From: a virus | Lineage: Duplodnaviria > Heunggongvirae > Uroviricota > Caudoviricetes | Strand: one strand, 5' to 3' | Length of the DNA stretch: 9,230 nucleotides | Virus record (IMG/VR): IMGVR_UViG_2740892218_000012 | Part shown: positions 2,617 through 9,230 of the stretch, in pieces | Layout: each line of letters opens with the position of its first letter | How positions within the stretch are numbered: position 1 is the stretch's first letter | The notes under the pieces: model-generated | What the model saw: the letters and a program-made list of their open reading frames with translations, nothing else | The model's database searches: none | Told to the model about the DNA's origin: nothing | Program-made: the position numbers and the translations under genes

Positions 2617-3093
2617 ATGCTTAGTGGTAAAGACTTAGGCCGAGCAATAGAGCAGGCCATTAACAAAAAAATCGCATCGGGATCCGTCAAATCAAAGGCG
2701 GAGGTCGCTCGCCACTTCAAAGTCCAACCACCATCAATCTATGACTGGATTAAGAAAGGCTCCATAAGTAAAGATAAACTTCCAGAATTATGGCGTTTCT
2801 TTTCTGATGTTGTTGGTCCAGAGCATTGGGGGCTTAACGAATACCCCATACCAACCCCCACCAACTCAGATACAAAAAGTGAACTTTTAGACATAAACAA
2901 CCTTTATCAGGCAGCCTCTGATGAAATAAGAGCGATTGTAGCTTTCCTGTTATCAGGAAATGCTACAGAACCAGACTGGGTTGACCACGATGTTCGCGCC
3001 TACATAGCAGCGATGGAAATGAAAGTTGGTAAGTATCTGAAAGTTCTAGAATCTGAACGGAAAAGCCAGAACATCACAAAAACTGGAACTTAA
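2617..3093 (+). CDS. racR: Prophage repressor (RacR-like, CI analogue)
   Basis: 158-aa ORF between the two operator clusters, divergent from the cro-like gene. HTH segment SKAEVARHFKVQPPSIYDWIKKG. AGGAG SD 11 nt upstream of the ATG. Size equals Rac RacR (158 aa). Confidence 0.75.
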   Translation: MLSGKDLGRAIEQAINKKIASGSVKSKAEVARHFKVQPPSIYDWIKKGSISKDKLPELWRFFSDVVGPEHWGLNEYPIPTPTNSDTKSELLDINNLYQAASDEIRAIVAFLLSGNATEPDWVDHDVRAYIAAMEMKVGKYLKVLESERKSQNITKTGT

Positions 3094-3232: not shown

Positions 3233-3409
3233 TCCAGCATGCCACCCACCCCGCCCCACAGCACGCAGGGCAATACTTCGAGTTACCAGGCAGTGGTCAG
3301 GGGTTAAGTAGCCAGCCCGAGGCGTAAGAACATGACGGCAGGGTTCAACTTTAACTATGCAGCAGGTTTTTGTTCCGCTACCCCGGCGTTAAGGGGAAAT
3401 GAGGTCAGC

Positions 3410-3562
3410 ATGGATACTATCGATCTTGGCAACAACGAATCTCTGGTGTACGGCGTGTTTCCCAACCAGGACGGCACGTTCACCGCGATGACGTATACCA
3501 AAAGTAAAACGTTTAAAACCGAAGCTGGCGCGCATCGCTGGTTAGCAAGAAACTCTGACTGA
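3410..3562 (+). CDS. ydaF: Small phage protein (YdaF-like, DUF1391-type), 50 aa; in-frame alternative start at 3332
   Basis: GAGG at 3401..3404, 5 nt upstream of the ATG at 3410; reads MDTIDLGNNESLVYGVFPNQDGTFTAMTYTKSKTFKTEAGAHRWLARNSD. First gene after the pL-like promoter. The track ORF 3332..3562 is the same frame extended to an upstream ATG with a weaker RBS. Confidence 0.5.
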   Translation: MDTIDLGNNESLVYGVFPNQDGTFTAMTYTKSKTFKTEAGAHRWLARNSD

Positions 3563-3573
3563 TGAGGTTGACG

Positions 3574-4212
3574 ATGGAATTTAAAGATTTACCTACTTCA
3601 ATCCAGGAGATTGCAGCACACACACTTCGTCATCGTCTGAACGAACTTGCATTGGAATCGGTAACGAAAAAAGACACTGATAATATGGCTCGTAATGTGC
3701 GCGATGCGTTTACCGGATTGTATTTCTGTGCGTCTGTAAATAAACACGACTCAGAGAGTGTGGCAAATAAAATTGCAGAAACGACAGCGCAAAACATCAA
3801 TACGAAACCAACGGAAGAAGAAATTGATCAGTTTGCTCATGATGCTGGTTTAAAAAACAAGAAAGAAAAATCGCCATATGCGGGGAACATGTTTGTTTAT
3901 GACAATCTCATCAGAATTCGTGGCGAAATTCCGGCGGAATACCTGGCAAGAGTCCATCAGGCATTGCTTAAAAATCTGGAAACAGAATTATTTGATGGCA
4001 ACACTAACGGTTTCTTCATGGTATCAGGCCTTGAGAAAGACTGGGATGCAGAAAAACGCTGGAATGTTGCTACATGGTTATTCAGTAACAGAGCCGCTGC
4101 TCTGGAAGCTTCGGCATGTATTTGCGGCCTGTTCTTAACAGACCACAAATATAATCTGGATGTGTACAGTTATATTTACGCTGAACACGGTCCGCTCTGG
4201 ATTGACTGGTAA
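3574..4212 (+). CDS. Hypothetical protein, 212 aa, no recognisable motif (accessory cargo)
   Basis: GAGG at 3564..3567, 6 nt upstream of the ATG at 3574 (the track ORF starts at the in-frame ATG at 3562, overlapping the upstream stop as TGATG). Long uninterrupted ORF with ordinary amino-acid composition, visibly AT-richer than neighbours. I could not assign it to any family from sequence alone. Confidence 0.6.
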   Translation: MEFKDLPTSIQEIAAHTLRHRLNELALESVTKKDTDNMARNVRDAFTGLYFCASVNKHDSESVANKIAETTAQNINTKPTEEEIDQFAHDAGLKNKKEKSPYAGNMFVYDNLIRIRGEIPAEYLARVHQALLKNLETELFDGNTNGFFMVSGLEKDWDAEKRWNVATWLFSNRAAALEASACICGLFLTDHKYNLDVYSYIYAEHGPLWIDW

Positions 4213-4422
4213 TTATAAGGAAACACCAGCAGGGCCGCGGCGACCAACAGAACGATTAAAATCAATAATGCCATTATAAAGGACATTATTTAATTTATCG
4301 TCGAATGCTGATTCTGTGAGCCTCAACTCTGAATGAGTTTTTAATAACCCTGATTGCCTGAGTTGATTTACTAGGCATTCAATCTGTTTTTCAATAAGCG
4401 GATTTCTTTTTTTGTTTGGCAT
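4213..4422 (-). CDS. Hypothetical small protein, 69 aa (73 aa if the upstream ATG at 4434 is used), convergent with the 212-aa ORF
   Basis: Minus-strand ATG at 4422..4420 preceded by GGAGG (plus 4428..4432, 5-nt spacer). Stop (plus TTA 4213..4215) abuts the TAA stop of the plus-strand gene (4210..4212). Lies in AT-rich DNA. No convincing promoter found, so confidence is limited. Confidence 0.4.
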   Translation of the reverse strand: MPNKKRNPLIEKQIECLVNQLRQSGLLKTHSELRLTESAFDDKLNNVLYNGIIDFNRSVGRRGPAGVSL

Positions 4423-4758
4423 TTTATCCTCCATTGAGGTTCTGGGTTAAAAATGGAGACCAACACGCTGTCACGTGTGGTCGTGCGCCGGACACGGATA
4501 AGAATCCGGTACTGACAGTTTACTGAAAGGATATATCCCTGAAAAGCCAGGGCATAACGCGAAAGCACACGGCGAAATTGGTCTCTCTGTACGGTGTCGT
4601 TAAATTTAATTCGACCGTGCGCTTCCGGTTGTGGCACTCCGCGAAATGGCGCGGCGGTAAGTATGGCGGGGTTATTCCTTCCCCGTTGAGGACACCGGGT
4701 TGTCAGGTTGACCATACGCTTAAGTGACAACCCCGCTACAACGCCCTCTGTTATCAAT

Positions 4759-4816
4759 TTTCTGGTGGCGTTTGGCGGTATCAGTTTTACTCCGTGACTG
4801 CTCTGCCGCCCTTTTT
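4759..4816 (+). ncRNA. dicF: DicF-like small RNA with intrinsic terminator (cell-division-inhibiting sRNA family of lambdoid prophages)
   Basis: Sequence tttctggtggcgtttggcggtatcagttttactccgtgactgctctgccgccc followed by TTTTT closely matches my recollection of E. coli DicF (UUUCUGGUGACGUUUGGCGG...CUGCCGCCC). It lies in an ORF-free stretch of the pL-like operon, upstream of a kil-type gene. Confidence 0.6.
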
Positions 4817-4990
4817 AAAGTGAATTTTGTGATGCGGTGAATGCGGCTAAGCGCACGCGGAACAGTTAAAACCAAAAACAGTGTTATGGGTGGATTCTCT
4901 GTATCCGGCGTTAATTGTTAACTGGTTAACGTCACCTGGAGGCACCAGGCACCGCATCAACAAAGTTCATTTGTAAAAATGGAGATAATT

Positions 4991-5212
4991 ATGATTGCTC
5001 ATCACTTCGGAACTGATGAGATTCCTCGTCAGTGCGTGACTCCCGGTGATTATGTTATTCATAAAGGAAGAACATATATTGCTTCGGTAAACAACATTAA
5101 AAAACAACGGCTCTATATTCGTGATTTTTCCACACAACACTGTATTAAGGAAACCATGATTAAAGTCTTCCTTGGTCGTGATGGTTTACCTGTAAAAGCA
5201 GAGTCATGGTGA
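4991..5212 (+). CDS. kilR: Kil-type small protein (KilR-like host killing/cell-division inhibitor), 73 aa
   Basis: GGAG at 4981..4984, 6 nt upstream of the ATG at 4991 (the track ORF starts 4 codons earlier at 4979, with no SD). Product [21 protein letters not shown]...[12 protein letters not shown]. Size equals Rac KilR (73 aa), and position (between sieB-slot cargo and the exonuclease) matches. Confidence 0.6.
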
Positions 5213-8069: not shown

Positions 8070-9094
8070 TGGGAAGACGAAGGAAAAATCCTGAACACGA
8101 AAAATTACCTCCAAATGTATACCCAAATAAATATAGTTATGTATGGAAACCAACATCCAGAGAATCTGTCACACTAACCGCCATCAAGGATGGTTTAGCT
8201 GCTTTATGGAAAAAGTATGAGGAAACTGTAAATAATCGCGATCGCGCAATGACATTCGGTCGCTTGTGGGAAAAATTCCTCGCCAGCGCCTATTACAGTG
8301 ACCTCAGTCCAAGAACACAAAAAGATTATCTGCAACATCAAAAAAAGTTGCTTGCCGTATTCGGTAAGGTGCCGGCAGATTCCATAAAACCAGAACACAT
8401 CCGTCGATACATGGACAAGAGAGGGGAACAGAGTAAAACGCAAGCCAACCATGAAAAAAGCAGTATGTCCCGCGTTTACAGTTGGGGGTATGAGCGAGGG
8501 TACGTGAAGGGTAACCCATGTGCAGGTGTAAGTAAATTCAAGGCCAAAAACCGCGAACGATATGTAACCGACAAAGAATACCAGGCAGTATTAAGTGTTG
8601 CACCTCTTCCTGTTTTTATCGCAATGGAAATTGCCTATCTGTGTGCAGCGAGGGTTTCCGATGTGTTATCACTGAAATGGGAGCAGATTGGAAACGACGG
8701 GATCTTTATCCAGCAAGGGAAAACAGGGAAAAAACAGATAAAAGCATGGAGTCCACGATTACAGGCGGCGATCGAAAAAGCAAAACAGTTACCAACATCT
8801 GCCTATGTAATCAGCAATCAATATGGCAACCGATATATGTACAAAGGTTTTAACGAAATGTGGGTAGAAGCAAGAAATCACGCAGGCAAAATTTCAGGTA
8901 TTTTAACCGACTTCACCTTTCATGATCTGAAGGCGAAAGGAATTTCAGACTATGAAGGAAGCAGCCGGGATAAGCAACTTTTCTCTGGTCACAAAACCGA
9001 AGGGCAAGTGCTAATCTATGACAGAAAGGTTAAAGTTTCACCAACACTTGATGTCCCGTTACCTGATAATATTCCAAGAAAATATTCCAAGTAA
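8069..9094 (+). CDS. Lambda-family tyrosine integrase, 341 aa
   Basis: N-terminus MGRRRKNPEHEKLPPNVY resembles the lambda Int arm-binding domain (MGRRRSHERRDLPPNLY). Catalytic-region motifs present: AARVSDV (Arg I), QGKTGKK (Lys), FHDLKAKG (His, with Lys where Arg II is expected), SGHKTEG (His), LIYDRK (Tyr). Adjacent to a tRNA 3' end. Confidence 0.9.
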   Translation: MGRRRKNPEHEKLPPNVYPNKYSYVWKPTSRESVTLTAIKDGLAALWKKYEETVNNRDRAMTFGRLWEKFLASAYYSDLSPRTQKDYLQHQKKLLAVFGKVPADSIKPEHIRRYMDKRGEQSKTQANHEKSSMSRVYSWGYERGYVKGNPCAGVSKFKAKNRERYVTDKEYQAVLSVAPLPVFIAMEIAYLCAARVSDVLSLKWEQIGNDGIFIQQGKTGKKQIKAWSPRLQAAIEKAKQLPTSAYVISNQYGNRYMYKGFNEMWVEARNHAGKISGILTDFTFHDLKAKGISDYEGSSRDKQLFSGHKTEGQVLIYDRKVKVSPTLDVPLPDNIPRKYSK

Positions 9095-9146: not shown

Positions 9147-9230
9147 TGGCGGAGAGAGGGGGATTTGAACCCCCGGTGGAGTTGCCCCCACTCCGGTTTT
9201 CGAGACCGGTCCGTTCAGCCGCTCCGGCAT
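9147..9230 (-). tRNA. serU: tRNA-Ser (anticodon CGA), 3' 84 nt including the encoded CCA; the 5' 6 nt lie beyond the window edge
   Basis: Reverse complement of 9147..9230 reads ATGCCGGAGCGGCTGAACGGACCGGTCTCGAAAACCGGAGTGGGGGCAACTCCACCGGGGGTTCAAATCCCCCTCTCTCCGCCA. Anticodon stem CCGGT/ACCGG with loop CTCGAAA (anticodon CGA), long variable arm GTGGGG-GCAA-CTCCAC, T-arm GGGGG-TTCAAAT-CCCCC, acceptor 3' strand plus CCA. Confidence 0.85.

Follow-up and report, generated by a model that had tools for sequence, protein, structure and literature searches.

What is the stretch of about 320 nt that lies between a small minus-strand gene and a DicF-like element in this DNA? The window, that is, the whole 9,230-nt stretch that we analysed, shows no obvious gene at 4435-4758. 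A sequence-only reading had called this region free of ORFs and rich in structure. It had offered three readings of it: a structured precursor from which the sRNA is processed, a second non-coding RNA, or the promoter and leader of a minus-strand small ORF. We find that 4482-4758 is very probably the untranslated leader of DicF, matured by RNase III and then by RNase E. The earlier finding is thus real and was rightly interpreted, yet it is already explained by published work on E. coli K-12.

The region lies in the early part of a lambdoid prophage

The window represents the early region of a lambdoid prophage, Rac/Qin-like and integrated beside tRNA-Ser, and the closest match to 4200-5000 is E. 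coli 377323_2f (99.6% identity). The gene order runs racR-like repressor, DUF1391, 216-aa gene, leader, DicF, dicB remnant, kil, exonuclease, integrase and tRNA-Ser, as follows.

Left of the HTH repressor, minus strand: Cro/YdaS-like gene and YdaT-like gene
2617-3093, plus strand: HTH repressor (racR-like)
3332-3562, plus strand: DUF1391 (ydfA-like) gene
3562-4212, plus strand: 216-aa gene, phrog_2151
4213-4422, minus strand: 69-aa gene, phrog_4274 (PHROG E = 1.2e-51)
4759-4816, plus strand: DicF sRNA (53 nt, 4759-4811; Rfam RF00039) with the terminator U-tract, product of the leader
4881-4964, plus strand: dicB remnant, downstream of DicF
4991-5212, plus strand: kil
After kil, plus strand: 823-aa exonuclease, DUF4224 gene and integrase

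A single gene, the minus-strand 69-aa ORF at 4213-4422, interrupts the plus-strand series. It converges with the 216-aa gene, their stop codons being adjacent at 4212/4213 with no terminator between them, so that the early-left transcript must cross the 69-aa gene in antisense on its way to the DicF leader. Scanning the plus strand of 4100-5100, we found no promoter-like or terminator-like site, and the gene order and strand fit an early-left operon under a CI/DicA-type repressor. At the window edge (9150-9230, minus strand), there is a truncated tRNA match that is annotated as tRNA-Ser in a near-identical genome; because it lies next to the integrase, we take it for the prophage attachment site.

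The DicF-like element downstream of the region is a full-length match to Rfam RF00039 (DicF) at 4760-4811 on the plus strand, scoring 76.4 bits against a gathering score of 48. The window DicF agrees with K-12 dicF in 52 of 53 bases, and its 5′ end was placed at 4759 from the K-12 annotation.

The leader is the counterpart of a known DicF precursor

From 4482 on, the window aligns with the unannotated 340-nt ydfC-dicF spacer of the K-12 prophage Qin. Identity over 4482-4758 is 89.3% (251/281 positions). It is 81% for 4482-4621 and rises to 97.8% (134/137) for 4622-4758, the 137 nt next to DicF.

In K-12, DicF comes from the polycistronic dicBF transcript, which begins upstream of ydfA; the work found no internal promoter, and RT-PCR spans ydfA to dicF (PMC10448788). 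A dicF probe is described as showing 190- and 53-nt species only (PMC10448788). The 190-nt species is RNase III-dependent, with its 5′ end mapped by primer extension (PMC10448788, citing Faubladier 1990), and the 53-nt DicF depends on RNase E (PMC10448788). The precursor reading is therefore borne out: the homologous K-12 sequence has been shown to be the DicF precursor (PMC10448788), and the window matches it at 97.8% over 137 nt.

With 53 of the 190 nt taken up by DicF, 137 nt remain on its 5′ side, and the RNase III end would fall at 4622, or up to 4627 when the terminator U-tail is counted; this coordinate is arithmetic carried over from K-12, where gel sizes are approximate. The 5′ end of the 190-nt pre-DicF would thus fall at about 4622-4627, within the 3′ arm of the helix that we call P1.

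Among 5426 complete E. coli genomes, 4315 carry the leader, at 8967 places in all, and the stretch is unannotated in RefSeq; an element of about 200 nt with some 9000 copies in complete E. coli genomes has gone without annotation. In the papers that we read, we found no explicit helix hosting the DicF RNase III site, no description of the mutually exclusive pairings reported below, and none of an exchange of DicF-like cassettes behind one leader. Genome-wide RNase III mapping papers cite DicF as background only.

A long-range helix and a three-hairpin domain are predicted in the leader

The region 4435-4758 has a G+C content of about 0.56, against 0.33-0.45 in its flanks. Its plus strand folds at -116.3 kcal/mol, compared to -102.4 ± 4.4 kcal/mol in dinucleotide shuffles (z = -3.1; 0 of 100 as good), which upholds the claim of a structure-rich region. 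The minus strand folds similarly (z = -3.5), so the folding energy alone gives no choice of strand. The three short inverted repeats that had been pointed out are all where they were placed: ccaacacg/cgtgtgg at 4460-4467/4474-4480, ccgga/tccgg at 4488-4492/4505-4509 and ccgcg/cgcgg at 4639-4643/4650-4654.

We built a structure model from 132 loci collected by an exact DicF-core pattern and 74 collected by the 69-aa protein, which gave 102 distinct leaders of 79-100% identity. RNAalifold (on 81 and on 102 sequences) and single-sequence folds agree on five elements: P1, P2, P3-P5, a hairpin at the DicF 5′ end and the terminator. The parts of the leader are these.

4482-4552, plus strand: distal leader module common to K-12 Qin (alignments with K-12 and phage Tritos)
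4553-4633, plus strand: helix P1, predicted RNase III substrate (RNAalifold, duplex energies)
4628-4742, plus strand: predicted three-hairpin domain of the 190-nt precursor, with hairpins in 4636-4734 (MFE and centroid fold of 4622-4815, RNAalifold)
4628-4635 with 4735-4742, plus strand: P2, closing P3, P4 and P5
4639-4643/4650-4654, plus strand: P3, the third of the repeats above
4667-4671/4681-4685, plus strand: P4
4697-4705/4725-4733, plus strand: P5
4743-4770, plus strand: predicted hairpin with the RNase E maturation site (RNAalifold helix 9; fold of the 190-nt species)

The distal module, 4482-4552, contains a hairpin with a variable loop (4488-4492/4505-4509) and a CCCUG/CAGGG hairpin (4537-4541/4548-4552). 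It is replaced in other DicF prophages and is therefore dispensable. The heptamer CGTGCGC occurs twice, at 4482-4488 and 4616-4622, and both copies complement GCGCACG at 4565-4571 (GCACACG in the window), so that the distal leader could be a competitor of the P1 3′ arm. Where 4482-4541 is replaced, the upstream copy is missing, and it is hence not essential. We also considered a nut site, as CCCUGAAAAGCCAGGG (4537-4552) looks boxB-like by eye; it was dropped because the loop has 6-8 nt and K-12-type copies break the stem (CAGAC). Reading 4435-4758 by eye, we saw no boxA.

In P1, 4553-4575 is predicted to pair with 4611-4633 in an imperfect helix of about 22 bp. G4559 and A4614 are bulged, A4562 and C4625 are mismatched, and the window has a mismatch of its own, A4567-C4620. 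The helix encloses a hypervariable loop, 4576-4610. Its calculated duplex energy is -27.3 kcal/mol in the window, -33.0 in K-12, -33.8 in E. ruysiae and -28.7 in Salmonella. Across the 102 homologues, the median pair probability is 0.94 for the core (above 0.5 in 98%) and 0.90 for the extension. In these predictions, P1 is thermodynamically robust. The window's own copy is atypical: the A-C mismatch at 4567/4620 weakens P1 and the P1 extension has a probability of 0.2, while in P2 a U-A pair replaces U-G and the probability of P2 is 0.78 even before cleavage.

The P1 extension and P2 share 4628-4633 and are therefore mutually exclusive. The median probability of P2 is 0.02 when the P1 5′ arm is present, and P2 forms in an RNA that starts at 4622. 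The folds suggest a P1-to-P2 refolding after the RNase III cut.

At the DicF 5′ end, UGUUAUCA (4749-4756) is predicted to pair with UGGUGGCG (4763-4770), the 3′ arm being the first DicF bases. The AU-rich 6-nt loop AUUUUC (4757-4762) holds the DicF 5′ end, 4759, and would fit an RNase E site. This helix, 4749-4756/4763-4770 (RNAalifold helix 9), shows only wobble-type one-sided changes among the homologues.

Putting these elements together, we propose the following course, in which the gene order is observed and its transcription inferred. The early-left operon would be read on the plus strand from a repressor-controlled promoter, and the transcript would pass the DUF1391 and 216-aa genes and then, antisense, the 69-aa gene before entering the leader. 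In the nascent RNA, 4553-4575 and 4611-4633 would form P1. RNase III would cut P1 to leave the pre-DicF of about 190 nt with its 5′ end at about 4622-4627, a step known from K-12 experiments and positioned in the window by homology. The freed 4628-4635 would then pair with 4735-4742 and close the compact three-hairpin domain. Until the next cut, the first DicF bases would be paired with 4749-4756. Finally, RNase E, as shown in K-12, would cut the AU-rich loop at 4757-4762 to give the 53-nt DicF.

A second long-range helix of nearly 30 bp is predicted just 3′ of the DicF terminator, between 4812-4840 and 4950-4980 (z = -5.4). It encloses the dicB remnant and, at 4813-4998, an STnc100-like element that stays below threshold (38 bits; gathering score 47), and it stops just ahead of the kil SD. 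The published RNase III-made 3′ end of a 72-nt DicF would map to about 4830, in the 5′ arm of this helix.

Predicted P1 is kept in a Salmonella copy that lacks the three-hairpin domain

Left of DicF, we found mosaic junctions at 4419, 4470, 4482, 4493, 4537, 4542, 4553 and 4565, all at or upstream of 4565. The minor-allele fraction reaches 0.24 in the loop 4576-4610; paired columns have 0.025 and the remaining unpaired columns 0.043. Hence the P1 arms are conserved, while the loop that they enclose, about ten times more variable, has been replaced repeatedly. This pattern, the positions of the junctions and the Salmonella copy described below all speak in favour of P1.

Covariation, which had been proposed as a check on the fold, gave next to no support among the E. 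coli copies. Among 81 E. coli-type sequences, none of 63 pairs showed compensatory changes, and shuffles equalled the real data. The 102 sequences gave two singleton pairs of 38. These copies are too similar to be informative. Over the full helices, 116 variant cells keep a pair and 104 break one. Kept and broken cells number 60 and 37 in P1 and 33 and 3 in P2, and P3, P4 and P5 are more often broken than kept. Helices P3-P5 are thus a thermodynamic prediction.

The one clear case of compensation is a Salmonella enterica locus. Here the sequence likeness is limited to the DicF core and the P1 5′ arm, and P1 is nevertheless present with 21 bp, CACGG/CCGUG being replaced by CACUCC/GGAGUG, a compensatory change. 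This copy is without the three-hairpin domain; 9 nt separate the end of its P1 from the DicF core. P1 would thus be the older and more general element and the 137-nt domain an addition of the E. coli lineage. This cross-genus comparison consists of one Salmonella sequence; a second viral scan gave 1 locus and the phage database none with P1.

The left end belongs to the module of the 69-aa gene

Homology with K-12-type loci begins at 4482, while about 20 relatives that have the 69-aa gene are homologous from 4419. The part of the region left of this boundary is made up as follows.

4423-4481, no strand assigned: spacer of the mosaic module carrying the 69-aa gene, not part of the K-12-shared DicF leader
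4458-4482, no strand assigned: imperfect inverted repeat gaccaacacg-ctgtca-cgtgtggtc, the first of the three repeats, seen in the sequence

The spacer is kept in 74 of 74 loci fetched via the 69-aa protein. The gene itself has its start codon at 4422 and GGAGG at 4428-4432, and RefSeq annotates it at these coordinates. The stretch 4423-4481 probably holds its 5′ UTR or upstream region. In some relatives, the loop of the 4458-4482 repeat (ctgtca or tgacag) and its bulge are inverted (variants v0 and v7; reversed 100% BLAST matches, 4461-4482). The repeat is thus liable to flip at the level of the DNA, which is no evidence of a function.

Could about 4423-4520 be the promoter and 5′ UTR of the 69-aa gene, with the hairpins at 4458-4482 and 4488-4509 as mRNA leader elements or operators? 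This reading, which is compatible with the precursor explanation for the right part, we consider possible, with the balance tilted against it. The gene is of a real family (the phrog_4274 match above) with a good SD, and 4423-4481 always accompanies it. Prophages that replace 4482-4541 carry a conserved motif at the equivalent place, a minus-strand extended -10-like element followed by an SD-holding hairpin. By eye, the minus strand of the window offers the weak candidates TTTTCA-17-TAAACT (-10 at 4522-4517) and GTGACA-17-TTTAAC. However, these score 8 or 9 of 12, and one is without the key A2 and T6 of the -10. The only site in the region from a minus-strand consensus scan (4450-4421) overlaps the start codon, and the scan gave 2 sites against a chance expectation of 2.1. 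Moreover, the -10-like bases vary between variant groups, and K-12 too has the 4482-4552 module, with no minus-strand gene following it there. What survives of the earlier suggestion that the region is the promoter and leader of a minus-strand small ORF is thus confined to the left end, about 4423-4520, and we see no convincing sigma-70 site in it.

The motif in the other prophages is of about 45 nt, CCACC.CGCCTGA.GTGGT.AAAAG.CAGGC, and stands beside a variable hairpin with compensatory changes. It was seen in several of our loci (L004, L012, L021 and L070-type), in SfV (L133:2458-2546), in a P22-like Salmonella phage (L134:2470-2535) and in Klebsiella phages. Read on the minus strand, it gives TTAACC-16 nt-TGgTATCCT and then a hairpin with the SD of sieB, membrane protein or zinc-ribbon protein genes; the SfV record annotates the motif-adjacent hairpin as a terminator. 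The motif is probably a shared promoter of lysogen-expressed accessory genes. At a related locus (L097), the proposed extended -10 scores 8 of 12 and was passed over by a promoter scan. The window may carry a partial relic of the motif at 4525-4552. We had also considered an RNA pseudoknot for CCACC..GCCUGA.GUGG..AAAAG.CAGGC and rejected it, since the minus-strand DNA promoter is the better explanation and the motif is partial in the window.

Neither a protein gene nor a second RNA accounts for the leader as well

No conserved ORF exists on either strand of 4435-4758, as had been noticed. The earlier statement that the longest plus-strand run has about 20 codons holds for ATG starts (ATG 4453, stop 4513) and fails for TTG and GTG starts, which open frames of 36 aa (4416-4526), 49 aa (4578-4727) and 31 aa (4594-4689). 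The 49-aa frame matches phrog_8854 (E = 1.8e-24), and several phage records annotate a "hypothetical protein" here, so we weighed a small protein gene, either this one or the minus-strand 128-aa ORF (4371-4757). We judge it highly improbable. The 49-aa ORF has a TTG start and no SD, and RefSeq annotates no gene on the stretch. In K-12, its frame has two TAG codons upstream of the conserved part. Among homologues, which differ by indels of 1, 2 and 3 nt in the C-run 4681-4684 and in the loop 4576-4610, the frame is shifted by 1-nt indels in the C-run and by non-triplet ones in the loop. Variant types over 4611-4727 fall on codon positions 1, 2 and 3 as 17, 16 and 21, with no third-position excess. 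The minus-strand 128-aa ORF, suspected from the start to be spurious, has no Pfam or PHROG match, and only 33 of 99 distinct homologues have a minus-strand frame open over 100 codons or more; the lengths of the open frames differ widely. Both ORFs are thus ruled out as genes by frame instability and the lack of codon periodicity. A K-12 GTG ORF with AAGGAG just upstream of 4482 was likewise rejected, since stop codons cut it in the window and in most relatives. The family phrog_8854 ("unknown function") apparently consists of over-called ORFs; its match lies in the non-coding DicF leader, where phage pipelines sometimes call such a spurious ORF.

The region may instead yield a second functional RNA, either the three-hairpin fragment of about 137 nt that is left after DicF release or an independent sRNA. 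We hold this to be unlikely. In its favour, 4622-4758 is as conserved as DicF itself (97.8% and 98.1% identity to K-12), it folds as a compact closed domain, and the domain is kept upstream of several different DicF-like sRNAs. On the other hand, the domain has no covariation support and is missing altogether from the Salmonella copy. In K-12, no internal promoter turned up, and the species described with a dicF probe are those of 190 and 53 nt only (PMC10448788). Searching Rfam within 4435-4758 up to E = 10, we obtained only one chance-level match (E = 9.1). For an independent sRNA in particular, which the sequence-only reading had named as an alternative, the plus strand of 4100-5100 offers neither a promoter-like nor a terminator-like site; together with the lack of an Rfam family match and the absence of the domain in Salmonella, this makes it unlikely. 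A functional 137-nt by-product of processing is conceivable. Also improbable is that the stretch is a neutral linker hitch-hiking with DicF, a mere boundary of homologous recombination with incidental hairpins. Mosaic junctions do cluster at both of its ends (4482, 4542 and 4565 on the left, 4742 on the right), covariation is almost absent, and the leader copies are so similar that they may have spread recently. The high conservation could indeed owe something to a recent spread and to hitch-hiking with DicF. It is difficult, however, to square a purely neutral linker with the processing of the homologous K-12 sequence by RNase III and by RNase E, which is an experimental fact (PMC10448788), with P1 arms that stay constant around a repeatedly replaced loop, and with a P1 kept in Salmonella through compensatory changes. 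The DicF precursor leader remains the best explanation of the region as a whole.

Relation to known systems

Like the ydfC-dicF spacer of the K-12 Qin dicBF operon, its homologue, the window leader lies directly upstream of DicF in what is probably a repressor-controlled early-left operon whose first gene is DUF1391 (ydfA-like), and it shares the predicted RNase III helix and the context of the RNase E site. It differs in its neighbours, the 216-aa gene and the convergent 69-aa gene rather than ydfB and ydfC, in the A-C mismatch at 4567/4620 and in the variable loop. Its dicB is a remnant followed by kil. On homology, the window leader belongs with the known DicF precursor leader, and the biology is already known; the model of the helix and the exchange of DicF-like sRNAs behind a common leader add modestly to it.

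CpxQ, SroC and SdhX are 3′ UTR-derived or intra-operonic sRNAs matured by RNase E (PMC9438474). As in these cases, DicF would be cut from a longer mRNA, with its 3′ end made by an intrinsic terminator and its 5′ end by RNase E. The DicF leader differs in having a prior RNase III step in a long-range helix and, in the window, about 550 nt of untranslated RNA, including the antisense passage, between the last plus-strand ORF and the sRNA.

Helices cut by RNase III in which long-range pairing brackets a product are familiar from rRNA precursor stems and from the lambda N-leader and sib sites. P1 resembles them as an imperfect helix of about two turns with arms tens of nt apart, whose cleavage would part the upstream mRNA from a stable RNA. 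In contrast to them, P1 brackets a variable loop and not the product, and the window has the second helix, 4812-4840/4950-4980, 3′ of DicF.

One leader precedes several DicF-like sRNAs

In other prophages, the leader up to 4742 precedes at least three other DicF-like cassettes. They start directly after the equivalent of 4742 and differ in their 5′ (seed) halves and, in part, in their terminator hairpins.

Type A: loci L194, L198, L200 and L203; Rfam DicF at 34-39 bits (gathering score 48)
Type B: loci L150 and L151; Rfam DicF at 51 bits (gathering score 48)
Type C: loci L197 and L204; no Rfam DicF match

Counting the canonical one, at least four DicF-like cassettes thus stand behind one leader; our tally put two of them below the Rfam threshold and one as undetected. 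Sampling leaders without selection for DicF, we found the canonical DicF in 50 of 63 and variants in 12 of 63. Types A-C may be unrecognised DicF paralogues with other targets.

Tentatively, we suggest that the leader, instead of being inert filler, is a portable platform for sRNA maturation, in which P1 and the three-hairpin domain are kept and the sRNA is exchanged, with a two-step "pri-sRNA" logic. As parts of the same tentative idea, the RNase III cut would free 4628-4635 for 4735-4742 and so set up the RNase E cut, and the DicF 5′ seed would be kept paired, hence inactive, until that cut. The helix model offers precise targets for mutagenesis, namely the RNase III site predicted in the 3′ arm and the two helices P1 and P2 that exclude each other. 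Combined with the several DicF-like sRNAs, it makes testable how toxic prophage sRNAs stay latent and then mature.

The canonical cassette of the window has a small peculiarity of its own. At 4767, in the 5′ target-pairing part of DicF, the base of this copy is G, against A in K-12 and most relatives (GGTGGCG and GGTGACG, respectively), and the G occurs in only 4 of 81 distinct sequences.
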